From positions 1 through 61,242 of the forward strand of contig JAZKII010000058.1 of NCBI GenBank assembly GCA_040384945.1: a stretch of 61,242 bases of DNA. Direction: 5' to 3'. This document shows positions 1-61,242 of the stretch, one piece after another; the first letter of the stretch is position 1, and each line of letters starts with the position of its first letter. This stretch comes from Pseudomonadota bacterium. GTDB taxonomy: Bacteria; Pseudomonadota; Alphaproteobacteria; Rickettsiales; UBA1997. A program made the translations under genes and the position numbers. Below the pieces are notes generated by a model. It saw only the letters and a list, made by a program, of their open reading frames with translations. It did not search any database and was not told the origin of the DNA.

Positions 1-47
1 TCGAGCTAGCATCTCGACGACGCACTTCGTGCTTTGCTCGATGACCT
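1..47. repeat. Family-C palindromic element, one arm only (cut by the window start)
   Basis: tcgagctagcatctcgacgacgc..gctttgctcgatgacct matches the left arm of the complete element at 58128-58246. It is the near-exact reverse complement of 61194-61242. Confidence 0.8.
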
Positions 48-138
48 AAAAAAATGATAGCCTTGGCTACTTAATATATAATCCTTTATGAAGATCTTGG
101 TCCATACGATCTCTAATTGAATCTCAATCTACCAAACA

Positions 139-1470
139 ATGAAAAAACTATCATCACTCTTTTTGGTAATTCTCCTAATTTCCGCCTGCGACAAAGATGA
201 AAAATATGACAAGGCCAAAGCAATTTCCGCCTTCGTTGCCATCGATCCAATTACAATCGACAAAAGCCTAGAAACCACTGAAATCAAGCTTCCAAAGCAA
301 CAGCAAAATAATTTATGGCTCGCTTCAGCCAGCGAAAGCAACCAACGCATTGAAAATTTCGCCAAAACTTTTTCCCTCAAAAAATCGCGCCAAATTTCTT
401 TAAAAGAATCTTCACAATTCTGGACTTTTTACAGCGGTAACCTCAACGACCATTTCGTTTTTTCTCCGGTAATTAACGGCGATATTGCTTATATTTTAGA
501 CACGACAGGCCAACTTGTAGCTTATAATTTAAAGACCGAAAAAAAAGTTTGGAAATCGCAAATCTTCCACAAAAAAATTCTGAAAAATTACCGCGCCCCA
601 AAAATCGGTTATGCTAAAGGTAAAATTTTTGCCACCGCCGGAACCAATAAAATTCTGGCTGTAGATGAAGTTGACGGCAAAGTTTTATGGTCACGCGACA
701 TTTCTTCAATTCCGGTTTCAACTCCAGTTTCGGATGGCAATTTAGTTTATGTTTCAACCAATGATAATAAACTTTATGCGTTAAATATAAATGACGGTGA
801 GTTGCAATGGTTTCAATCCGGAATTTTACGCACCACCGCCATCTTTGGCGCGGCAGACCCTGTAATTTATAAGGATACGCTAATTGTTTCTTATTCTTCC
901 GGCGAAATTTACGGCGTTAATAAAAAAACCGGCGAATCGCTATGGTCGCAAAATCTGAACTTAAGCAAAGCCACCAATTCTGATTTTTATTTAAACGATA
1001 TTGATGCCACGCCGCTCGCTAAAGATGACATGATTTACACCATCGGAAATGGCGGTTGGATGATGGCAATTTCAACTAAAAACGGTAATTACTTATGGCG
1101 CAAAGAAATCGCCGGAATCGTTGACTTCTGGCTGGCAGGAGACTTTTTATATGTGATTAATAATGATAATAAATTATTGGCAATTCACAGAAAAACTGGC
1201 GGTATAAAATGGATTTCGCAATTGCCGAATTTGGCGAAAAAAGATAAATTAGAAACCAGAATAATTTACAGCGGTGTGATTATGGCTGGTGATAAATTGG
1301 TGATTTCAAATAATAGCGGTGATTTATTGATTGCATCGCCAATTGATGGAAAAGTAGAAAAAACTTTTTCCGTCGGCAAAAGAATTTCCCATTCTCCGGC
1401 GGTTGTCGGAAACAAGATTTACCTGCATATTTTAGGAAAATATGTGGTTGATTTGGTGGAAGTGGAATAG
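139..1470 (+). CDS. bamB: BamB-like outer-membrane assembly lipoprotein (PQQ-like beta-propeller repeats)
   Basis: Lipoprotein signal MKKLSSLFLVILLISAC (lipobox LISAC). Repeated propeller-blade motifs are present: TEKKVWKS, DGKVLWSR, DGELQWF, TGESLWSQ, NGNYLWRK, TGGIKWIS. Confidence 0.75.
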   Translation: MKKLSSLFLVILLISACDKDEKYDKAKAISAFVAIDPITIDKSLETTEIKLPKQQQNNLWLASASESNQRIENFAKTFSLKKSRQISLKESSQFWTFYSGNLNDHFVFSPVINGDIAYILDTTGQLVAYNLKTEKKVWKSQIFHKKILKNYRAPKIGYAKGKIFATAGTNKILAVDEVDGKVLWSRDISSIPVSTPVSDGNLVYVSTNDNKLYALNINDGELQWFQSGILRTTAIFGAADPVIYKDTLIVSYSSGEIYGVNKKTGESLWSQNLNLSKATNSDFYLNDIDATPLAKDDMIYTIGNGGWMMAISTKNGNYLWRKEIAGIVDFWLAGDFLYVINNDNKLLAIHRKTGGIKWISQLPNLAKKDKLETRIIYSGVIMAGDKLVISNNSGDLLIASPIDGKVEKTFSVGKRISHSPAVVGNKIYLHILGKYVVDLVEVE

Positions 1471-1503
1471 TCATTTTATATTTGTAGCAAGATCCCATAG
1501 CAA

Positions 1504-1530
1504 GACGGGGTTACAAAACCCGTCCAGCGC
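1504..1530. repeat. Family-A hairpin, solo half element, 3' of bamB
   Basis: gacggggttacaaaacccgtccagcgc is the same hairpin plus cagcgc tail as the right end of the full elements at 40701-40790 and 47110-47200. Confidence 0.8.
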
Positions 1531-1583
1531 CAGGCGCAAGATCCAGCGCAAATAAAAAGTAGAAAATAAAATTTAATTAAAAA

Positions 1584-4157
1584 ATGTCCGAACAAGTAAA
1601 ACTTACCGATAAATACGATCCAAAAACCCGCGAGAAATTCTGGCAAAATCACTGGAAAGAAAACAAAATCTTCTCCTGGAAAAACGATCTCCCAAAAGCC
1701 CAAACTTTCGTTATCGATACGCCACCACCAACAGTTTCTGGCCTTCTACACATGGGCCATGTTTTCTCTTACACCCAAGCCGATTTCGTGGCGCGTTTCC
1801 AAAGAATGTCTGGTAAAGATGTCTTTTATCCAATGGGATTTGATGATAACGGCCTTCCAACCGAACGCTTAGTTGAAAAAATTATCGAGAAAAAAGCCGG
1901 AGTTTTTGAAAGCGAAAACGGCCACGGATCTTTCGTAAAAAAATGCCGCGAAGTTGTTGATGAAGCGGAAAAAGAATTTGAAATTTTATTTAACTCAATC
2001 GCACTTTCAGTTGATTGGGACCAGAAATATCAAACGATTTCACCGCAGTCGCAAAAAATTTCCCAAGCCAGTTTCGTTGATTTATACCGCAAAAATTTAG
2101 TTGAAAAAAAATTCGAACCAGTTTTTTGGGACATTTCCGACCGCACCGCTCTAGCGCAAGCCGACTTAATTGATAAAGAAGTTGAAGGCGTGATGAATGA
2201 AATTGAATTTTCAATTGAAGGAAGTGATGAAAAAATAATTATCATGACAACGCGTCCAGAGCTGCTTCCAGCCTGTGTCGCCGTAATGGTTCATCCAGAA
2301 GATGAACGCTATAAAAACCTTCACGGCAAAAATGCCATAACTCCGCTTTTTGGAGTTAAAGTTCAAATCATCGCTGATGATTTAGTTCAATTAGATAAAG
2401 GAACCGGCGCTGTAATGTGCTGTACTTTCGGTGATGAAACAGATATTCGCTGGTGGAAGAAACACAGTTTGCCGCTCAAAATCATCATTCAAAAAGATGG
2501 CAGAATTGAAGGCATTTCGATCAAACAATTTAAAGAAAAAGTAATTGAAGATCTAAAAAATACTCCCAGCAATATTCAGAGCGGGATGGGGTTTGTAACC
2601 CCGTCCCCACGTTCATTAAATGGACATGAAAATGAGGACGGGGTTACAAACCCCGTCCTGCAGCCGCTTTTGCGCTCGGTGCTGATAAAGCAAGAGCCGA
2701 TTAAGCGCGCCGTTAAATGTGCAGAGCGTTCCGGCGTTCCAATCGAAATTGTAGTTGCGCCGCAATGGTTTATCAAAATTCTTGATAAAAAAGAATTGCT
2801 GAAAAGCAAAGCAGCGGAATGCAACTGGTTTCCGGAATATATGAAAGTGCGCATCGATCAATGGATTGATGGGTTGCAATGGGATTGGTGTATTTCGCGT
2901 CAAAGATTTTTCGGCGTAGCATTTCCGGTTTGGTATTCAAAAAAAGCAGGCGAAGAAGGGAAAATTTTAGTTGCGGAACCTTCGCAACTTCCATGCGATC
3001 CGAATGTTGATTTGCCAGCAGGTTATTCGCGTGATGAAGTTACCGCTGAAACCGATATTATGGACACTTGGGCCACTTCATCAATTTCACCGCAATTATC
3101 TTCGCGCGGAATTTCCGATGAAATTTCTTTCGATAAAGCACGTCATGAAAAACTTTTCCCGGCAGATTTGCGTCCGCAAGCTCACGAAATTATTCGTACT
3201 TGGGCGTTTTATACGATTGTAAAATCGGCATTACACCAAAATTCCATTCCATGGAAAAACCTGATGATCTCAGGCTGGTGCTTGGCGGCGGACAAAACCA
3301 AAATGAGTAAATCAAAAGGAAATGTGGTTACTCCAACTTCTTTGATTGAAGAAAAAGGTTCTGATATTGTGCGTTATTGGGCTTCAACTTCGCATCTTGG
3401 CGCGGACACAGCTTACTCGGAAGAAGTATTTAAAATTGGCCAAAAATTAATCACCAAACTTTTCAACGCCGCGAAATTTGCTTCGATGAATTTTGCCTTG
3501 TTGCAAAATGATGCTAAAGTAACAGAAGCTTCTGATTTGTGGATTCTAGCACGTTTGCAACAAGTTGTAGAACGAGCAACTAAAGAATTCGAAAGCTTTG
3601 AATATGCTCGCGCGCGTGAAGTAATTGAAGAATTTTTCTGGAAAGATTTTTGCGATAATTATTTGGAAATTTGCAAAGTCCGTTCTTACGGAATTGCAGC
3701 GGAAAAAGTTGCTGGAGTTGAATTAAACGATCAACAAAAAGCTGAAATTTCTGCCAAACAACAAAGCGCGATTTTAACTTTGCGAATTTGCTTAAATAAT
3801 TTGTTAAAACTTTTTGCCCCTTTTATTCCGCATATTTGTGATGAAATTTATTCATCACTTTTTGCGGAGGAATTTGCGCAAAATTCTTCAATCAACGCAC
3901 GTGGTAACTGGCCGCAAGTTGATTCAAAATTTTATAATGATGGTTTGATTGAAGATGGAAAATTATTGTTGGAAGTGATTTTTGAAGTGAGGAAATTTAA
4001 ATCGGAAAAAAATATTTCGATGAAAACCACAGTTGAGAAAGTGAAAGTGGCGAAAGTTTTAGGTATTGAGAAGTTTGTTGAAGATTTAGCAAATGTTTGC
4101 AATGCCAAAGAAATTGAATTGGTGGTTGAAGAAAAATTAGTAGAAGTAATTTTATAG
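1584..4157 (+). CDS. valS: Valine--tRNA ligase (short archaeal/Rickettsia-type) with an in-frame palindromic-element insertion
   Basis: Class I aaRS motifs PPPTVSGLLHMGHVF (HIGH-type) and KMSKSKGN. The ORF is 857 aa, and the N-terminal block YDPKTREKFWQNHW is typical of ValRS. Confidence 0.95.
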   Translation: MSEQVKLTDKYDPKTREKFWQNHWKENKIFSWKNDLPKAQTFVIDTPPPTVSGLLHMGHVFSYTQADFVARFQRMSGKDVFYPMGFDDNGLPTERLVEKIIEKKAGVFESENGHGSFVKKCREVVDEAEKEFEILFNSIALSVDWDQKYQTISPQSQKISQASFVDLYRKNLVEKKFEPVFWDISDRTALAQADLIDKEVEGVMNEIEFSIEGSDEKIIIMTTRPELLPACVAVMVHPEDERYKNLHGKNAITPLFGVKVQIIADDLVQLDKGTGAVMCCTFGDETDIRWWKKHSLPLKIIIQKDGRIEGISIKQFKEKVIEDLKNTPSNIQSGMGFVTPSPRSLNGHENEDGVTNPVLQPLLRSVLIKQEPIKRAVKCAERSGVPIEIVVAPQWFIKILDKKELLKSKAAECNWFPEYMKVRIDQWIDGLQWDWCISRQRFFGVAFPVWYSKKAGEEGKILVAEPSQLPCDPNVDLPAGYSRDEVTAETDIMDTWATSSISPQLSSRGISDEISFDKARHEKLFPADLRPQAHEIIRTWAFYTIVKSALHQNSIPWKNLMISGWCLAADKTKMSKSKGNVVTPTSLIEEKGSDIVRYWASTSHLGADTAYSEEVFKIGQKLITKLFNAAKFASMNFALLQNDAKVTEASDLWILARLQQVVERATKEFESFEYARAREVIEEFFWKDFCDNYLEICKVRSYGIAAEKVAGVELNDQQKAEISAKQQSAILTLRICLNNLLKLFAPFIPHICDEIYSSLFAEEFAQNSSINARGNWPQVDSKFYNDGLIEDGKLLLEVIFEVRKFKSEKNISMKTTVEKVKVAKVLGIEKFVEDLANVCNAKEIELVVEEKLVEVIL
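2583..2664. repeat. Family-A double-hairpin element inside valS, translated in frame
   Basis: ggatggggtttgtaaccccgtcc..cacgttcat..ggacggggttacaaaccccgtcc encodes GMGFVTPSPRSLNGHENEDGVTNPVLQP. It has the same termini as the intergenic copies. Confidence 0.85.
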
Positions 4158-4680: not shown

Positions 4681-5259
4681 ATGACCAAATTAAAATTGAT
4701 TGCGATTGCAGCTATTGCTTTTGCTTTTTCTGCCAAGGCATCTTTTGCTGAAGCTGTTAAATACCAAATCGAACCAAACCACACTTATGCTGTATGGTTT
4801 GCCAATCATTTTGGTTTTTCTAACCAATCAGGAAAATTTTCTGATGTTAGTGGCGAAATTGCTTTTGATGAAGCCAAGCCCGCCAATTCTTCCGTAGAAG
4901 TGACGATTAAAATTGATAGTTTAGTTACTGGTTTATCTAAGTTTGATAATCATTTAAAAAGCGCTGATTTTTTTGATGCGGAGAAATTTCCAACTGCGAA
5001 ATTTGTGAGCAAAAAAATTAGAGTGACTGGCAAAGACAAAGCGAAAATTGAAGGTGATTTAACCATGCATGGTGTGACTAAAACAGTTATTCTTGATGCT
5101 AAAATGAATAAATCCGGAGTTAGCGCTGTTACTCAAAAATCAACTATCGGCTTTAGCGCGACTGCTGAAATCAATCGTTCAGAATTCGGTTTGGAATATG
5201 CAATTCCAGGCGTTGCGGATAAAGTTAAATTAGTAATTGAAGTTGAAGCTAATCGTTAA
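4681..5259 (+). CDS. yceI: YceI-family periplasmic polyisoprenoid-binding protein
   Basis: Signal peptide MTKLKLIAIAAIAFAFSAKASFA. YceI blocks are present: YQIEPNHTYAVWF..HFGFSNQSGKF, SLVTGLSKFDNHLKSADFFDAEKFPTAKF, LTMHGVTK. Confidence 0.85.
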   Translation: MTKLKLIAIAAIAFAFSAKASFAEAVKYQIEPNHTYAVWFANHFGFSNQSGKFSDVSGEIAFDEAKPANSSVEVTIKIDSLVTGLSKFDNHLKSADFFDAEKFPTAKFVSKKIRVTGKDKAKIEGDLTMHGVTKTVILDAKMNKSGVSAVTQKSTIGFSATAEINRSEFGLEYAIPGVADKVKLVIEVEANR

Positions 5260-5317
5260 TTTGGTTAAGGATGTGTAAAAGCTGTGCGCAGCAGGATCTC
5301 CAGCAGGACTTGCAGCA

Positions 5318-5365
5318 GGACGGGATTTTTAATCCCGTCCTAATGTTCATGTAAAATGTGACGAG
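5318..5365. repeat. Family-A half element (left hairpin plus spacer start)
   Basis: ggacgggatttttaatcccgtcctaatgttcatgtaaaatgtgacgag. The hairpin and the gttcatg..aaaatgtg spacer match the full elements, and the right hairpin is missing. Confidence 0.7.
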
Positions 5366-5372
5366 TATGGAT

Positions 5373-5456
5373 AGATCCTGAATCAAGTTCAGGATGACGA
5401 TGTGGGAGAAACGAGTCTAATAAAAACTCCGTCATCCTGAACTTGATTCAGGATCT
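5373..5456. repeat. Family-B long palindrome (27-bp arms)
   Basis: agatcctgaatcaagttcaggatgacg..cgtcatcctgaacttgattcaggatct. A second copy lies inside polA at 42661-42740. Confidence 0.85.
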
Positions 5457-5567
5457 AGTGTGAAGTTACAACAAAAGAAATGACGATGAGATAGATTTTG
5501 AAATTGCATTTGAAATTAAGAAGGATTTGATTCTGCTTTAGTTCACGCCAACTAATTTTTAAGAACC

Positions 5568-6908
5568 ATGACTCTAGATCCAGTTCTACTCGCCCGCATC
5601 CAGTTTGCTTTTACCATCAGTTTCCACATTATTTTCCCCGCCTTTACCATCGGACTCGCCGGCTATCTTGCTGCAATCGAAGCGCTTTACCTAAAAAGCA
5701 AAAACATAATTTACAAAGAAATCTACAAATTCTGGGTCAAAATTTTCGCCATAATTTTCGGTATGGGCGTTGTTTCTGGCGTTGTTTTATCTTACGAACT
5801 TGGCACTAATTGGGCTGGCTTTTCATTCGCTACTTCCAATGTTTTAGGTCCGCTTTTCGGCTTTGAAGTTTTAACTGCTTTTTTCCTCGAAGCCTCATTT
5901 TTAGGAATCATGCTTTTTGGCTGGGAACGCGTTTCTGCAAAAATGCACTTCACTTCAACTTGTATAGTTGCATTTGGAACTGTGGTTTCGGCATTTTGGA
6001 TTTTAGCCGCAAATAGTTGGATGCACACGCCACAAGGTTTCATGGTAAAAGATAATGTTTTCTATCCCGTAAATTGGCTGGAAATTATTTTTAATCCTTC
6101 TTTTCCATACCGCTTTTTCCACATGGTGATCGCCACTTATTTAACCTGCGCTTTCGTGGTGGCAGGTGTTTCTTCCTGGTTATTATGGAAAAACCGCGAG
6201 TCACTTCACGCCAAAATAATGCTCAAAATGGCGCTTAATTTTATCATAATTTTTGTGCCGTTGCAAATTGCAGTTGGTGACATGCATGGCCTAAACACGC
6301 TGCATCATCAGCCGGCAAAAGTTGCAGCGATGGAAGGAATTTGGGAAACTGAAAAAGGCGCGCCGCTGACACTTTTCGGTATTCCTGATGAAGAAAGTGA
6401 AACTACAAAATATGCAATCCGCATTCCAAAAATGGCGAGCATGATTTTAACCCACGATCCAAAAGGTGAAATTGCCGGATTAAAATCTTTCCCCAAAGAC
6501 CAACGCCCGCCAGTACTTCCGATTTTTATTTTCTTTCGCGTGATGGTTGGAATCGGTGTTTTAATGTTGGCAACCGGTGTAATGGCTTTGTACTTATATC
6601 GTAAAAGAAAACTTTTTGAAGCGAGATGGTTTCAACTTTGGTGCATGGCGATGACACCAAGCGGATTTATCGCATTGCTTTCGGGTTGGTTTGTAACTGA
6701 AATTGGCCGCCAGCCTTATGTAGTTTATGGTTTACTGCGAACAAGAGAAGCTGCGTCAGTTATAGCGGCAGGGCAGGTGTTATTTTCGCTGATTGTTTTT
6801 GTGGTGGTTTATTTTGTGATTTTCGGGTCGGCGACTTTTTATATTTTAAGACAAATTGCCAAAGGGCCGCAGAAAATTGAAGGTCCAATTCAAACCTTAA
6901 ATAAATAA
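5568..6908 (+). CDS. cydA: Cytochrome bd ubiquinol oxidase subunit I (short Q-loop type)
   Basis: N-terminus LARIQFAFTISFHIIFPAFTIGLA, and EIGRQPYVVYG matches the GRQPW block. It is 446 aa with multiple TM helices and is followed by cydB. Confidence 0.9.
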   Translation: MTLDPVLLARIQFAFTISFHIIFPAFTIGLAGYLAAIEALYLKSKNIIYKEIYKFWVKIFAIIFGMGVVSGVVLSYELGTNWAGFSFATSNVLGPLFGFEVLTAFFLEASFLGIMLFGWERVSAKMHFTSTCIVAFGTVVSAFWILAANSWMHTPQGFMVKDNVFYPVNWLEIIFNPSFPYRFFHMVIATYLTCAFVVAGVSSWLLWKNRESLHAKIMLKMALNFIIIFVPLQIAVGDMHGLNTLHHQPAKVAAMEGIWETEKGAPLTLFGIPDEESETTKYAIRIPKMASMILTHDPKGEIAGLKSFPKDQRPPVLPIFIFFRVMVGIGVLMLATGVMALYLYRKRKLFEARWFQLWCMAMTPSGFIALLSGWFVTEIGRQPYVVYGLLRTREAASVIAAGQVLFSLIVFVVVYFVIFGSATFYILRQIAKGPQKIEGPIQTLNK

Positions 6909-37220: not shown

Positions 37221-37250
37221 TATTTGACGGGAAATTATGCTTAAGTTTTG

Positions 37251-37343
37251 TACCACAACCCCCCAACCCCCCTTATCAGGGGGGCTTTGAGATCGAACTC
37301 GGATTAAAGCCCCCCTGATAAGGGGGGTTGTGGGGTTGTGGTA
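37251..37343. repeat. Family-D G/C-tract nested palindrome between hisB and nagZ
   Basis: taccacaaccccccaaccccccttatcaggggggcttt..aaagcccccctgataaggggggttgtggggttgtggta. Each arm also contains its own cccccc-ttatca-gggggg hairpin. Confidence 0.85.
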
Positions 37344-37359
37344 CGATTTTATATTATTT

Positions 37360-39577: not shown

Positions 39578-40659
39578 AAATTGTTCACATAATTTTAACT
39601 TCCCAAAATGGCGGAGCGGAGCAGGCGTTTATTGATTATTCGGTGGCTTTAAAAAATCTTGGTCATGAAATTTTGGCGATCATAAAAAATGATGCGCCTT
39701 ACGCTGATGCAGTTGAAAAACTTGGAATTACGGTGAAAAAAGTTCCCAATAAATTGGGATTTTATGATATTTTTACAGTTAAAAAAATTCATGAAATTCT
39801 GGAAGAATTTAATGCCGATACAGTGATAGCACATGCCGGAAGATCAACAGTTTTAGCGCGCCGTGCCATTGCCAAAATAAAAAATAAAAAAACTTTTTTA
39901 ATCGCTGTAAATCACAGCATGAATGTGAAGCGTTCAATCGGCGCTGATATTATTCTTTCGGTGAATAAGGAAATTTTCTTGCGCACAATTAATGCCGGGC
40001 AAAGTGAAACAGCGAGTTTCGTAATTCAAAATGCGATTGATTTGAGCGATGCGCCAATAGTTGCGTCGAAAATTGATTTGCAAAATAAAGAAACAATCGT
40101 GCTTGGCGGAATGGGTCGCCTCGATATTGCCAAAGGTTTCCGCTTTGTTATTCGGACAATTAAAAAATTGGAAGAACTCGCCAAAGCAGATAATTTAAAT
40201 AAGAAATTTGTTTTTAAGATTGCTGGTTCTGGCGAGCGTGAAGATTATTTACGTAATCTTGCCAAAGAATTAAATGTTGAAAGTAAGATAGAATTTTTGG
40301 GCTGGATGAAAAATAAAAAAGAATTTTTTAACTCGATTGATATTTTTATAATGTCGTCAGAGCGTGAAACTTTTGGTTTGGTGGTTTTAGAAGCCATGAA
40401 ATTTCGCAAGCCAATAATTTCAACCGATGCTGATGGCCCGAAAGAATTTTTGAGAAATGATGTAGATGCTTTGATGGTGAATTTGCAGCCTTTGGATAAT
40501 ATAGAAAACAGAATTGCCGATGCGGTTTTGAGAATGGTTAATGAGCCGGAATTGGTGAATAAATTGGTTGAAAATGCGTTTGCTAAAGTGAATGAAAAAT
40601 TTTCTTATAAGGCGCTGGAGAAATATTTTGAAGAGATTGTGGGAAGAGTGAAAAGTTAA
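39574..40659 (+). CDS. GT-B (family 4) glycosyltransferase
   Basis: SERETFGLVVLEAMKFRKPIISTDADGPKEFL (EX7E-type motif). It overlaps the preceding GT2 gene by 4 nt. Confidence 0.75.
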   Translation: MKIVHIILTSQNGGAEQAFIDYSVALKNLGHEILAIIKNDAPYADAVEKLGITVKKVPNKLGFYDIFTVKKIHEILEEFNADTVIAHAGRSTVLARRAIAKIKNKKTFLIAVNHSMNVKRSIGADIILSVNKEIFLRTINAGQSETASFVIQNAIDLSDAPIVASKIDLQNKETIVLGGMGRLDIAKGFRFVIRTIKKLEELAKADNLNKKFVFKIAGSGEREDYLRNLAKELNVESKIEFLGWMKNKKEFFNSIDIFIMSSERETFGLVVLEAMKFRKPIISTDADGPKEFLRNDVDALMVNLQPLDNIENRIADAVLRMVNEPELVNKLVENAFAKVNEKFSYKALEKYFEEIVGRVKS

Positions 40660-40700
40660 GAATTCTTGATTTAAGAATTTTTGATTTGAGTAAGAATTTG

Positions 40701-40790
40701 AGCAAGACGGGATTTGTAATCCCGTCTTCGCGTTCATGCAAAATTAATTGAACTGAAAATGTGAACGGGGTTACAAACACCGTCCAGCGC
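40701..40790. repeat. Family-A full double-hairpin element between the convergent GT4 and polA genes
   Basis: agcaagacgggatttgtaatcccgtcttcgcgttcatgcaaaattaattgaactgaaaatgtgaacggggttacaaacaccgtccagcgc. Confidence 0.85.
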
Positions 40791-40827
40791 TAAGGGTTGG
40801 GGGGTTTTGCGGTCTTAATTTATTTTA

Positions 40828-43632
40828 CTACTTCCAACAATCCGCCACAGTCACATCAACCTTCAACGGCACATCTAAAATCGCCGCATTTTCCATTTCA
40901 TATTTCAAAATCTTTGTCGCAATTTCCACTTCATTTTCTGGTGCTTCTACAATCAATTCGTCATGAATTTGTAAGATAATTTTTGATTGTAAATTTTCTT
41001 CCTTAAATCTTTTACTCAAACGAATCATCGCCTTTTTGATAATATCCGCGGCACTTCCCTGAATCGGCGCGTTAATCGCCAGGCGCTCAGCTTCGGCGCG
41101 GATCATCGGGTTTTTATTATTAATATCGCGGATAAAACATTTGCGCCCGGAAAGGGTTTGGACATAGCCATTTTTCCGAGCCAATTCGATGTAATTTTTC
41201 ATCGAAATATCAATTCCCGGATAAGTTTCTAAATAAGATTTTATATAAATTGCAGCTTCCTGACGTGGAATATCTAGTTGACGAGCCAGCCCGAACGCGC
41301 TGATTCCATAAATAATTCCGAAATTAATTGCTTTGGCTTTGGAGCGTAAAGAATCGTCAACTTCATCTTCTGTAACTCCGAAAACCTGCGCCGCTGTAAT
41401 GCGGTGAATATCTTTATCTTCTTTAAAGGCATTAATTAAATTTCCGATTTTTGCGGCATGAGCAATCACGCGCAGTTCAATTTGTGAATAGTCGGCGGAA
41501 ATTAAAAAATGATTTTTTTCAGCGATAAAACTTTCGCGGATTTTTTGGCCTTCCAAACTTTTTATCGGAATATTTTGCAGGTTTGGATACCTAGAGCTGA
41601 GCCTTCCGGTAATTGTTGAAGTTGTAGAAAAATGCGTGTGAATTCGGCCGGTTTGTGGGTTAATTTCTTCCGGCAAAGCATCGGTATAAGTATTTTTTAA
41701 TTTAGAAAATTTCCGGAAATCAAGAATTTTTCTTGCAATCGGATTTCCAGCCTCATCAAGCTCTTCAAGCACGCCAACACCGGTTGAAAGCGCTCCGGTT
41801 TTTTTTGATTTTTTGCCGGAAGCCAAACCCATTTTTTCAAATAAAACTTCCGAAAGTTGTTTGGCTGAAGCGATGTTAAATTCATGTCCGGCGAGGATGT
41901 AAATTTCGCTGCTTAATTCGGCGATTTTTTTACCGAATTCTTGTGAAAGTTGACGTAATTTTGCCACGTCAATTTTAATGCCGTTAGTTTCAATTTGCGC
42001 TAGAACCTCAATTAATGGGCGCTCAAAAGAAAGATAGGCTTCAGTTAATTTTTCAGGCGCAATTTTTGGCGCAAATATTTTGTAAAGTTGGTAAATTGCG
42101 AAATTTCTAAAAGTTAAAAATTCAGCTTTTTTTTCGGGATCGGCAAAAATTTCCGGCTCGCGATCTTTTTCAATTTCCGCAAAAACTTTGCCAAAACCTA
42201 ATTGTTCGACATCTTCGTTGAGATTAAGATCTATAAGCTCGCGTAAGTCATTTTTAACTGAAGAAGTTAAGAGGTGATGAATAGTTGCGACATCTTCGTA
42301 GGAATTTGCCGGAGAAAATTTTAAGAAATTTTTGGCATCGAAAAAGATTTTTTTAATTGAATCATCAGTCAGAATTTTTTCTAGAATTTCGATGTCAAAG
42401 CCTTCAGTTTCAATCTTTTCTGGTTCGTGATTAAAACTAAATAAATCAAAAGAGTGATTTTGATTTGGAGTTTTTGCCGATTTTTTTACTTCGAAATAAA
42501 GAATTTCTTTTGGAGAATCGCCTGATTTACAAGTTGAAATTGTGATGAAATTTTTATCGCGGTCGATTGTGACTTGGCCGTTTGTAGATGCTTCTTTGTT
42601 GAGTCGCGCGATTATTTCGGGAGATGAAATTAAAGTTTTTTGGCATGACGAAAACACGCTAGATCCTGAATCAAGTTCAGGATGACGGAGTTCTTGGGAA
42701 GATTTTACCACATCGTCATCATGAACTTGATTCAGGATCTGTTTTTCAACAGGAACAGCAGCATTTTCCGAAATTCCAAATTCTTTGCGAACTCTTGTAA
42801 TCAATGAATGAAAGCCTTGAATCTGCAAAAAAGAAATTAATTTATGCGGATCAAGGGCGCGAATTTCTAATTCATCCAAATGAATTCCTAACTCAACATC
42901 TTCTTTCAAAGCTGCTAAAATTTTTGAAAGTTTGGCTTTTTCAATTCCTTCGCTCAAAAGCTGGCGACGCTTTTCTTGCTTGATTTGATGCAGGTTTTCA
43001 AAAATATTTTCCAGATTTCCAAATTGCTTAATTAATTCGGCAGCGGTTTTTGGGCCAATGCCTTTTACGCCTGGAATGTTATCTGATGTGTCACCAATTA
43101 ATGACAACATATCTAAAACTTTTTCTGGCCCAACTTCGAATTTTTCTATAACTTGGGGAATTCCAATCATGCGGTTTTTCATCGAATCATACATGTGGAT
43201 ATTTTCTCCAACCAGCTGCATCAAGTCTTTATCCGATGAAACGATTAAAACTTCATAACCTTCAATTTCAGCTTTTTTGGCGATGGTTGCGATGATGTCG
43301 TCAGCTTCGAAACCAATTTTTTCAAGTATTGATAAATTCAATGATTCGGCGCTTTCACGAACAATCGAAAATTGCGGAATTAATTCTTCAGGGCAGGGTG
43401 GACGATTGGCTTTGTAAGCCGGATAAATATCATTTCTAAAAGTTTTAGAGCCGGAATCAAAAACAACAGCGGCGTGAGTTACATTAAGCCCGGCCAAAAG
43501 TTTAATTAACATATTGGTGAAGCCATAAACTGCACCAACCGGCGTGCCATCTGGTCTGGTTAAAGGTGGCAAAGAATGAAAGGCGCGAAATACGAAGCCA
43601 TAACCGTCAATTAAGGCGATTTTTTTGGACAT
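40828..43632 (-). CDS. polA: DNA polymerase I with an in-frame family-B palindrome insertion
   Basis: 5'-nuclease N-terminus LIDGYGFVFRAFH. Polymerase motifs ADYSQIELRV, RSKAKAINFGIIYG and LQIHDELIVE are present; 934 aa. Confidence 0.95.
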   Translation of the reverse strand: MSKKIALIDGYGFVFRAFHSLPPLTRPDGTPVGAVYGFTNMLIKLLAGLNVTHAAVVFDSGSKTFRNDIYPAYKANRPPCPEELIPQFSIVRESAESLNLSILEKIGFEADDIIATIAKKAEIEGYEVLIVSSDKDLMQLVGENIHMYDSMKNRMIGIPQVIEKFEVGPEKVLDMLSLIGDTSDNIPGVKGIGPKTAAELIKQFGNLENIFENLHQIKQEKRRQLLSEGIEKAKLSKILAALKEDVELGIHLDELEIRALDPHKLISFLQIQGFHSLITRVRKEFGISENAAVPVEKQILNQVHDDDVVKSSQELRHPELDSGSSVFSSCQKTLISSPEIIARLNKEASTNGQVTIDRDKNFITISTCKSGDSPKEILYFEVKKSAKTPNQNHSFDLFSFNHEPEKIETEGFDIEILEKILTDDSIKKIFFDAKNFLKFSPANSYEDVATIHHLLTSSVKNDLRELIDLNLNEDVEQLGFGKVFAEIEKDREPEIFADPEKKAEFLTFRNFAIYQLYKIFAPKIAPEKLTEAYLSFERPLIEVLAQIETNGIKIDVAKLRQLSQEFGKKIAELSSEIYILAGHEFNIASAKQLSEVLFEKMGLASGKKSKKTGALSTGVGVLEELDEAGNPIARKILDFRKFSKLKNTYTDALPEEINPQTGRIHTHFSTTSTITGRLSSRYPNLQNIPIKSLEGQKIRESFIAEKNHFLISADYSQIELRVIAHAAKIGNLINAFKEDKDIHRITAAQVFGVTEDEVDDSLRSKAKAINFGIIYGISAFGLARQLDIPRQEAAIYIKSYLETYPGIDISMKNYIELARKNGYVQTLSGRKCFIRDINNKNPMIRAEAERLAINAPIQGSAADIIKKAMIRLSKRFKEENLQSKIILQIHDELIVEAPENEVEIATKILKYEMENAAILDVPLKVDVTVADCWK
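42661..42740. repeat. Family-B palindrome inside polA, translated in frame
   Basis: agatcctgaatcaagttcaggatgacg..cgtcatcatgaacttgattcaggatct encodes about QILNQVHDDDVVKSSQELRHPELDSGS. This lies in the linker after the 5'-nuclease domain. Confidence 0.85.
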
Positions 43633-47041: not shown

Positions 47042-47109
47042 GTGGAGGATTTTTTAAGAAATTTTTTTGTTAAGAATTTATAATATATTTTTGAGATCGT
47101 ATAGAATTG

Positions 47110-47200
47110 AGCAGGACGGGGTTTGTAACCCCGTACTCACGTTCATGCAAAATTAATTGAACTTGAAAATGTGGACGGGGTTACAAACCCCGTCCAGCGC
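47110..47200. repeat. Family-A full double-hairpin element, 3' of the pilin-like gene
   Basis: agcaggacggggtttgtaaccccgtactcacgttcatgcaaaattaattgaacttgaaaatgtggacggggttacaaaccccgtccagcgc. Confidence 0.85.
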
Positions 47201-47281
47201 AGATTGGGTTATCACGTCATACGATTTTTATGCAAGTGTGGATTTGTATGTACAAAATACATCTTTCAAGCAAACACAAAA

Positions 47282-61155: not shown

Positions 61156-61193
61156 TTTGTTTTTGTGTAATTGTTGTAAAGCTAGTAATTCTC

Positions 61194-61242
61194 AGGTCAT
61201 CGAGCAAAGCACGAAGTGCGTCGTCGAGATGCTGGCTCGATG
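61194..61242. repeat. Family-C palindromic element, one arm only (cut by the window end)
   Basis: aggtcatcgagcaaagcacgaagtgcgtcgtcgagatgctggctcgatg is the reverse complement of 1-47, apart from one or two mismatches. Confidence 0.8.

Follow-up and report, generated by a model that had tools for sequence, protein, structure and literature searches.

A palindromic repeat doublet translated in frame within valS of an uncultured Rickettsiales-like bacterium

The valS locus and its insert

The valS gene for valyl-tRNA synthetase (ValRS) hosts a palindromic repeat in the stretch of DNA described here, the entire 61,242-nt contig of an NCBI metagenome-assembled genome (MAG) labelled Pseudomonadota bacterium, referred to below as the window. 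The gene is an intact open reading frame (ORF) whose product is 100% identical to the entry P0001, 'MAG: valine--tRNA ligase [Pseudomonadota bacterium]'. It is a class I synthetase, with the HIGH ('LHMGHV') and KMSKS motifs present in the translation and Pfam matches to tRNA-synt_1 (1.7e-78) and Anticodon_1 (2.2e-31); its best relative of solved structure is the ValRS of Thermus thermophilus (1GAX). Identity to the ValRS of Rickettsia sp. and Wolbachia is 48-53%, and the nearest genomes are uncultured freshwater-lake MAGs labelled Rickettsiales or Alphaproteobacteria. The host lies outside the genus Rickettsia and is an uncultured freshwater Rickettsiales-like bacterium.

The insert is defined by comparison with an empty allele. 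In locus L001, from a Swedish lake MAG that matches the window in gene order and has ~90% nucleotide identity to it, the empty site (GATCTAAAAGCCAAAAATCTTTTGCTAAAACAAG) reads GATCTAAAA / GCCAAAAATCTTT / TGCTAAAAC, and the 13 nt in the middle (GCCAAAAATCTTT) are replaced in the window by 124 nt, so that valS gains a net 111 nt (37 codons). The added length is exactly divisible by three, and the valS reading frame remains open across the whole segment, which corresponds to ValRS residues 326-366 and specifies the peptide NTPSNIQSGMGFVTPSPRSLNGHENEDGVTNPVLQPL plus changed flank residues; NTPSNIQSGMGFVTPSPR and SLNGHENEDGVTNPVLQPLLR are predicted tryptic peptides. The original prediction, made from the sequence of this DNA, had recognized a double-hairpin element in frame within valS, and both hairpins are present at the place given, in an ORF that is intact. 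Alignment also bears out a lineage-specific indel, although its borders are wider than those first drawn (Table 1) and the gain is 37 residues rather than the ~27 proposed.

Within the segment lies the core of the repeat, here termed family A, with the arrangement GC-[left hairpin]-spacer-[right hairpin]-TGC. The left hairpin (GGGATGGGG / TTTGTAA / CCCCGTCCC) encodes GMGFVTPSP, and the right hairpin (GGACGGGG / TTACAAA / CCCCGTCC) encodes EDGVTNPV. The spacer between them includes a short central stem (GTTCAT...ATGAA), is shorter than in intergenic copies and is stop-free in the valS frame. When 2581-2616 and 2626-2661 are taken as arms, they are 86% complementary (repeat finder, I10). The outer flanks are specific to this site in valS: the left flank (AATACTCCCAGCAATATTCAGA, encoding NTPSNIQ) is common to filled valS alleles of every repeat family and lies outside the family A consensus, and the right flank (..AGCCGCTTTTGCGCTCGGTGC, encoding QPLLRSV) is weakly complementary to it.

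Copies of family A in the window and elsewhere

Family A is represented in these 61 kb by three full and two half copies. The repeat finder groups the valS locus with 5311, 40698 and 47107, and the valS copy is matched by nhmmer with an E-value of 2.6e-27; a 21-nt hairpin motif, allowing up to 3 mismatches, has 10 matches at 8 window sites, while none of 100 shuffles contains any match. Further copies had been predicted at 1504, 5318, 40701 and 47110, and all four are real, as two full copies (40698 and 47107) and two halves (1502 and 5309). The half copy upstream of valS is absent from L001 and from the filled locus L082, where other palindromic families occupy its place. Spurious ORFs across the intergenic copies had been said to encode the same peptides, which is only partly so: most frames of the intergenic copies hold stops, and ORF 40420-40737 (- strand) encodes the TGLQIPS version. 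Two of the three frames are open through the left hairpin. The spacer of coding copies is short and stop-free, whereas nearly all frames of the window's intergenic copies contain stops. An Rfam scan of the whole window returned no family.

In the spacers that flank the valS block (window 1470-1584 and 5259-5568), the palindromic family found at a given position differs between the window, L001 and L082; to judge from these three loci, the spacers follow the same pattern of replacement as the valS site.

With a profile built from ten copies, nhmmer detects 63 family A copies in the window and 117 fetched loci (118 sources), and a strict two-hairpin pattern is found on 35 metagenome contigs. The repeat is read in frame within long ORFs for IleRS, CobT, MnmE (3 contigs), cofactor-independent phosphoglycerate mutase (iPGM) and a class I/II aminotransferase; the copy in iPGM uses the other open frame (DGVCNPV...TGLQTPS). 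The same profile finds no family A in the Rickettsia/Wolbachia loci L045, L059 and L071 (~20 kb each). Dispersal both in intergenic DNA and in frame within unrelated housekeeping genes is the behaviour described for Rickettsia palindromic elements (RPEs; reviewed in PMC10969869), to which the original prediction had likened the repeat, and dimers of repetitive extragenic palindromes (REPs) inside ORFs have also been described, including R. conorii RPE-4 and RPE-6 (PMC3733652). The same hairpin core is also seen on ~50% GC contigs from other bacteria.

Fold and covariation

The 124-nt valS segment folds with -64.9 kcal/mol (z = -7.8), and on either strand the minimum-energy fold, for the valS copy and for an intergenic copy (z = -8.8) alike, is one long hairpin. 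Covariation was computed on 36 aligned family A copies with 500 shuffles. For the two terminal hairpins and small central stem, 16 pairs have changed on both sides, a result that none of the 500 shuffles reaches, and likewise none reaches the score of 0.233 (shuffles 0.121). The long arm-to-arm pairing has 9 pairs changed on both sides, which 270 of the 500 shuffles reach, with a score of 0.108 (shuffles 0.099); the single long hairpin, considered as a candidate for the conserved structure since it is the minimum-free-energy fold, is rejected by this test. The absence of arm-to-arm covariation is expected for two independent REPs. With covariation in the terminal hairpins and not in the arm-to-arm stem, the anatomy is that of a REP doublet, similar to those named REPINs.

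The terminal hairpin stems show compensatory changes in 12 of 17 pairs. The left hairpin (helix 1) is 96% paired, with both-side changes in 7 of 9 pairs, and the right hairpin (helix 4) is 92% paired, with such changes in 5 of 8; the central stem (helix 3) is 78.5% paired. The loops TTTGTAA and TTACAAA are nearly invariant across family A copies, and the consensus has the ends GC-nGGACGGGG...CCCCGTCC-nGC. Pairing in the hairpin stems of the 15 coding copies amounts to 95.7%. Even alleles with the repeat at the valS site itself carry compensatory stem-base variants (GGGAT/GTCCC, CAGAC/GTCTG and AAGAC/GTCTT) by which the encoded peptide changes too, which argues that maintenance acts on the nucleic-acid hairpin and not on the protein.

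Occupancy of the site among ValRS relatives

A word-index protein search provided 120 ValRS homologues whose identity, insertions set aside, is 78% or more; they are 816-1052 residues long, with a baseline of 816-820. In the residue numbering of the 820-residue form (alignment A2) the insert lies at site 325, which is empty in 71 of the 120 and filled in the other 49. The occupants are the family A peptide (GFVTPS..GHE.EDGVTNPV) in 22 enzymes, palindromic family B (NHPPLEGGS...STLPQGEGD) in 5, family C (CHPERSEGS...SPQND), which is related to the window repeat at 5372-5457, in 3, family B arms around an in-frame DUF559/PF04480 nuclease ORF in 5, and short unclassified inserts in 14. The closest ValRS relatives of the window are all empty; P0002, P0003, P0005, P0006 and P0007, with 94% identity and 820 residues, lack the segment. 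T. thermophilus ValRS has ~23 residues where the window has 51, and matches to distant Rickettsiales, Wolbachia and other ValRS genes span ~2.4 kb, which leaves no room for the insert. The segment is thus not conserved in distant ValRS orthologues, and the original reading of a translated, selfish and lineage-specific palindromic repeat is supported.

Occupants differ between ValRS that are otherwise nearly the same. Family A faces an empty site in P0004 and P0015 (core identity 98.8%) and in P0022 and P0031 (98.4%), a 10-residue stub in P0012 and P0016 (98.6%), and family B with DUF559 in P0023 and P0087 (96.2%), turnover of this last kind being seen at 94.5-96.2% ValRS identity. Changes of occupant between near-identical enzymes imply rapid gain, loss or replacement, or exchange of alleles. 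On this sequence evidence ValRS site 325 is an insertion hot spot for several palindromic families. Family A is also present at two further ValRS positions (~214 and ~606) in some relatives, and no shared DNA target motif is evident at sites 214, 325 and 606 in the empty allele.

The nuclease-bearing enzymes (P0024, P0087, P0095, P0112 and P0116) are 1019-1052 residues long and carry the DUF559/PF04480 ORF, of ~110 residues, between inverted family B arms. Free-standing DUF559 homologues elsewhere bear the same arm-encoded peptides (NHSPLEGES…); a domain search returned only free-standing small proteins and no other in-frame DUF559 fusions. In one of these valS inserts (L043:7630-7800) a 48-nt unit encoding GNLKFALQADASPQGE is present in three tandem copies beside the right arm of family B.

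Place of the insert in the enzyme

In the sequence alignment the insert falls where the window enzyme fails to align with T. thermophilus ValRS: residues 315-365 correspond to T. thermophilus residues 307-329, which places the insert between T. thermophilus residues 306 and 330. In the isolated editing-domain construct 1WK9 this position is among the last 30 residues at the C-terminus, downstream of the conserved GTG..D editing motif and ahead of the strand leading back into the catalytic core. An AlphaFold2 model of the window ValRS, based on a 35-sequence alignment, is poor, with a mean predicted local distance difference test score of 49.9, and has a helix at 313-325 followed by a coil at 326-372 with the lowest confidence. 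The model was for this reason kept out of fold searching, and alignment to 1GAX and 1WK9 gave the position of the site; the modelled coil would be consistent with a flexible loop.

Many relatives have, at ValRS residue ~308 (window ~2505-2510), a variable non-repeat insert of 13-67 residues that is lacking in the window. This second insert, 17 residues upstream, indicates that this part of CP1 is generally permissive. Filled site-325 alleles mostly co-occur with the ~308 insert and with a distinct upstream flank (xGKTIKQAKEAIIEALK).

Origin of the copy and link to a transposase

Identity of the window's valS copy to the valS copies of other genomes is 88%, against 71-76% for the intergenic copies of its own contig. 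Filled valS alleles of any family share the flanks NT(P/R)S ... (L)RS-V, which are absent from the family A consensus in other genes, and these site-specific flanks argue that the filled alleles are related by descent. Upstream of the insert, 20 informative sites agree with the empty-allele lineage versus 1; the 33 nt immediately downstream contain 7 informative sites, of which 6 agree with the filled allele L081. The window copy was probably inherited or recombined from other valS alleles rather than copied afresh from the intergenic copies of the same contig.

A candidate for the enzyme that multiplies the repeat is encoded by L085, where an ORF of 166 residues (10309-10806) matches the full NCBIfam profile NF047646, 'REP-associated tyrosine transposase' (RAYT), at 5.4e-22 and 78.2 bits, just below the cut-off of 80. 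It shows an HLH (HUH) motif and the sequence YIHQNPV, and canonical family A doublets lie on both sides of it. Among its 419 homologues, several are named RayT or REP-associated tyrosine transposase at their source. The homologue P0232 is encoded on JAGWWH010000010.1, a contig that also carries the family-A-bearing valS of L010; P0157 is encoded on a contig of 79,182 nt, and the contig recorded for ValRS P0083 is also 79,182 nt long. The doublets that flank the P0232 and P0157 genes consist of hairpins that are related but not the same. No RAYT is found by tblastn in 80 valS loci. Multiplication of the REP doublet by RAYT is the most likely mechanism to be drawn from these arrangements, and the flanking of RAYT-like genes by family A differs from what has been published for CGTC-type REPs, which are stated to lack a dedicated transposase.

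The stems and loops of RAYT-flanking doublets vary between the contigs L085, L118, L119 and L120 (TTTGTAA, TCTCTGA and CTTGTAG); the sequences suggest that RAYT transposase and hairpin may co-diversify.

Table 1. Coordinates of the valS insert, of family A copies in the window and of related features at other loci
Feature	Position	Strand	Basis or remark
valS (valyl-tRNA synthetase)	1584..4157	+	intact ORF, 857 residues; hosts the repeat element
Whole inserted/replaced segment	2559..2682	+	DNA alignment with L001 (empty), L081 and L082 (filled); protein alignments
Left outer flank	2559..2580	+	alignments
Core repeat, family A (REP doublet)	2581..2661	+	repeat finder (D20, I10); nhmmer
Left hairpin	2583..2607	+	sequence; covariation helix 1
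Spacer with short central stem	2608..2635	+	covariation helix 3
Right hairpin	2636..2658	+	sequence; covariation helix 4
Right outer flank	2662..2682	+	alignments, fold
Half copy, single hairpin, in spacer upstream of valS	1502..1532	.	nhmmer, motif match
Half copy, single hairpin and part of spacer	5309..5357	.	nhmmer, motif match; yceI-cydA spacer, abuts family C doublet
Full-length intergenic copy	40698..40796	.	nhmmer 76.9 bits; between glycosyltransferase gene and polA
Full-length intergenic copy	47107..47205	.	nhmmer 85.9 bits; DNA fold z = -8.8
RAYT-like gene	L118:4001-4495		homologue flanked by variant doublets
RAYT-like genes	L119 and L120:4001-4498		homologues flanked by variant doublets
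Family B + DUF559 insert in valS	L043:7159-7866		
Family B + DUF559 insert in valS	L057:11120-11707		
Family B + DUF559 insert in valS	L061:11069-11632		
Family B + DUF559 insert in valS	L066 (~1933)		

Interpretation and alternative explanations

The reading favoured here, with a probability of roughly 0.7, is that the insert is a non-autonomous REP-doublet (REPIN-like) repeat that is translated in valS, has probably been multiplied by RAYT and has no function for the host. The unit of the repeat is two hairpins of 23-25 nt in inverted orientation with a short spacer between them, and the family would be multiplied by a REP-associated tyrosine (HUH/Y1) transposase that acts on the hairpins in single-stranded DNA. 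The point of entry into the valS coding sequence would have been a hypervariable loop, close to where the CP1 (editing) insertion has its C-terminal end; the filled allele may have persisted because the reading frame used is stop-free and the loop tolerates extra residues. The window would then have received its copy by descent or by homologous recombination from another filled valS allele. Most likely without a host function, the insert adds a 37-residue, probably flexible, loop rich in Pro, Ser, Gly and Asn.

Several observations weigh against this reading. The sole RAYT gene with canonical family A hairpins on its flanks belongs to another organism, on a contig of 51% GC; its Pfam Y1_Tnp match is weak, and its NCBIfam match is just under the cut-off; the hairpins that flank RAYT genes in the Rickettsiales-like contigs differ in loop and stem from the valS copies; and tblastn detects no RAYT homologue in the 61-kb window. 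The family A consensus lacks the GTAG tag of classical REPs. The borders of the insert are not clean, with 13 nt replaced and no target-site duplication seen at the valS junctions when the window is compared with the empty allele, so that the original insertion event cannot be reconstructed. The mosaic cluster of informative sites has a binomial P of ~0.002 when taken a priori but is not significant in a whole-gene scan (P = 0.35), which leaves recombinational transfer suggestive rather than demonstrated, and part of its signal is due to changes specific to the L001 lineage. The reading further presumes that the insert is neutral for ValRS.

An RPE-like element unrelated to RAYTs might instead spread by recombination, gene conversion or an unidentified (e.g. 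homing-type) nuclease, its association with RAYT being coincidental or a matter of other sub-families only. The survey of CGTC-type REPs, R. conorii RPE-4 and RPE-6 included, found no dedicated transposase (PMC3733652), and such an account would also suit the lack of a RAYT in the window, the signs that the filled allele was transferred laterally together with its flanks, and the DUF559 nuclease element at the same ValRS site in relatives. It is nevertheless judged unlikely, in view of the canonical family A doublets on both sides of the RAYT-like gene in L085 and of the related doublets that flank RAYT homologues in L118 and L119/L120, from repeat-bearing valS lineages, since this is the defining REP-RAYT arrangement; family A copies, moreover, have no nuclease ORF of their own.

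A rather doubtful proposal, offered tentatively, would make ValRS site 325 a 'homing' site for palindromic elements that are retained in the mature protein. The DUF559 (Vsr-like) nuclease would cut empty or differently filled alleles, and repair would copy the filled allele together with a short flank. If true, this would explain how three palindromic families and a nuclease element come to replace one another at the same codon, the replacement among 94-99% identical ValRS and the foreign downstream flank of the window insert. It would amount to an intein-less, translated homing system and would provide a concrete mobility mechanism for RPE-type elements.

Domestication of the insert is quite improbable. 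A hairpin (in DNA or mRNA) or peptide loop that serves valS, for instance in translational pausing, in mRNA stability or as a new interaction surface of the editing domain, would agree with the compensatory changes that keep hairpin complementarity in coding copies, even among homologous valS alleles filled at site 325, with the very stable mRNA segment (-64.9 kcal/mol) and with the filling of the site in 49 of 120 relatives. The nearest relatives, however, do without the insert, and the site may equally hold any of three unrelated repeat families, a nuclease ORF or nothing at all, with turnover at 94-99% ValRS identity. The peptide is also less conserved than its host enzyme, with ~20 of 29 residues matching between the window and L081 where the ValRS core has 88-94% identity, and replacement with other copies would explain the compensatory variation equally well.

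An artefact, either a chimeric or misassembled contig with a repeat collapsed into valS or a decaying valS pseudogene, can hardly be credited: repeats do break this assembly, as the inverted repeat copies at the contig ends attest, but the ORF is intact, 94% identical to relatives and in possession of its catalytic motifs, the insert is an exact multiple of three, and filled alleles with the same junction flanks recur, always in frame, in >20 independently assembled sequences from several sources (NCBI, JGI, ENA and Logan), which makes a contig-specific misassembly unlikely. Class I synthetases often bear lineage-specific CP1 insertions, and many relatives have a variable non-repeat insert at site 308, but an ancient native ValRS loop, with the intergenic look-alikes derived from it or unrelated, is extremely improbable given the same sequence family in intergenic DNA and in five other unrelated genes, its absence from the closest relatives and its palindromic DNA architecture with covariation.

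Relation to known repeat systems

Rickettsia has been known for 25 years to carry palindromic repeats in frame within essential genes. To our knowledge there is no settled account of how RPEs move, unexplained since 2000, or of how proteins tolerate them. Family A appears to be a new repeat family, with the known behaviour of RPEs and intragenic REP dimers. Like RPE-1 to RPE-10 (Ogata et al. 2000, 2002; summarised in PMC10969869 and PMC3733652), it is palindromic, measures ~100-150 bp and is scattered through a Rickettsiales genome, with copies between genes and in frame within unrelated housekeeping genes, a recognisable family peptide and tolerated positions in proteins. It is set apart from the RPE families by description: the host is an uncultured freshwater Rickettsiales-like MAG with a ValRS ~50% identical to those of Rickettsia and Wolbachia, and the RAYT association and multi-family hot spot are visible here but go unmentioned in the accounts of RPEs cited.

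The doublet also resembles the REPINs of REPIN-RAYT systems and REP/BIME elements (Bertels & Rainey 2011, PMC3116915, PMC3337134) in having two short imperfect palindromes in inverted orientation with a spacer between them, an architecture seen in the 36-copy alignment and set out in PMC3337134. The hairpins, and not a long stem, are the conserved units, and a single Y1/HUH transposase gene is bordered by copies. In classical usage the name REPIN denotes an extragenic element, whereas many family A copies are translated inside essential genes; and no RAYT is found in the window itself. REP-RAYT systems are also the reported subject of work by Nunvar in 2010 and Ton-Hoang in 2012.

CGTC-tagged REPs are described as having an unpaired terminal CGTC tag, an 8-9 bp stem, a 4-5 nt loop and a CCA-like tail, and as forming head-to-head dimers (PMC3733652). 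Family A shares with them (Di Nocera et al. 2013, PMC3733652) a hairpin that ends in CGTC(C) and a short tail, a stem of 8-9 bp and a predominance of head-to-head dimers; such REPs are known in Alphaproteobacteria including Rickettsia and Wolbachia, and their ORF-internal dimers encode 20-30 residues. In family A, in contrast, CGTC is base-paired within the stem and the loop has 7 nt (3 nt if TT/AA pairs are counted) rather than 4-5 nt. No transposase was found to be flanked by CGTC repeats (PMC3733652), whereas family A flanks RAYT-like genes.

Inteins and homing endonucleases offer a further parallel, being likewise selfish insertions that recur at one site of a conserved essential gene; the filled valS allele appears to move with its flanks, and some relatives have an in-frame DUF559 ORF there. 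Unlike an intein, the insert stays in the mature protein and family A encodes no nuclease. Pfam detects no Hint or splicing domain, the window protein having synthetase domains only and the long relatives adding only PF04480 and PF18741. Miniature inverted-repeat transposable elements such as ERIC and Correia/NEMIS are comparable as small non-autonomous inverted-repeat elements able to make in-frame fusions (PMC10969869), but the valS site has no visible target-site duplication and the enzyme linked to the repeat is a transposase of the Y1 rather than the DDE type.

The REP-doublet anatomy, the RAYT association, the multi-family hot spot and the in-frame nuclease-bearing palindromic element at the same codon all go beyond the original prediction. 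The locus gives a repeat family that behaves like RPEs and whose hairpins flank RAYT-type genes, and it shows compensatory evolution of hairpins inside coding sequence. More than 100 ValRS alleles that are close to identical also form a natural series, in which the site is empty or holds family A, one of two other families or the nuclease-bearing element. With such defined substrates, mobility can be tested (RAYT, DUF559), as can tolerance (ValRS with and without the insert). For annotation, variation in the length of core enzymes in such genomes is often repeat-derived.

Other repeats of the contig

The contig ends (window 1-52 and 61189-61240) are inverted copies of one 52-nt sequence, 94% complementary, and the assembly probably broke there inside another repeat family. 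The repeat-finder output for the window is dominated by very long ORFs between 10900 and 21800, in which GGxGxD-type (RTX-like) nonapeptide repeats number in the hundreds and are joined by 291-nt tandem domains. A near-perfect 39-nt inverted repeat (…CCCCCCTTATCAGGGGGG…) at 37250-37344 is located at or just upstream of the 5' end of an ORF for a glycoside hydrolase of family 3 (nagZ-like), and is possibly a further palindromic family that reaches into an annotated ORF.

The family C doublet (GATCCTGAA..TTCAGGATGACG), unrelated to family A, lies in frame within polA (DNA polymerase I; 40828-43632, - strand) at 42655-42740, where it encodes the peptide …HDDDVVKSSQELRHPELDSGSS…. This doublet is just past the 5'-nuclease domain, the alignment with Taq stopping at residue 290, and an intergenic copy of family C is present at 5372-5457.

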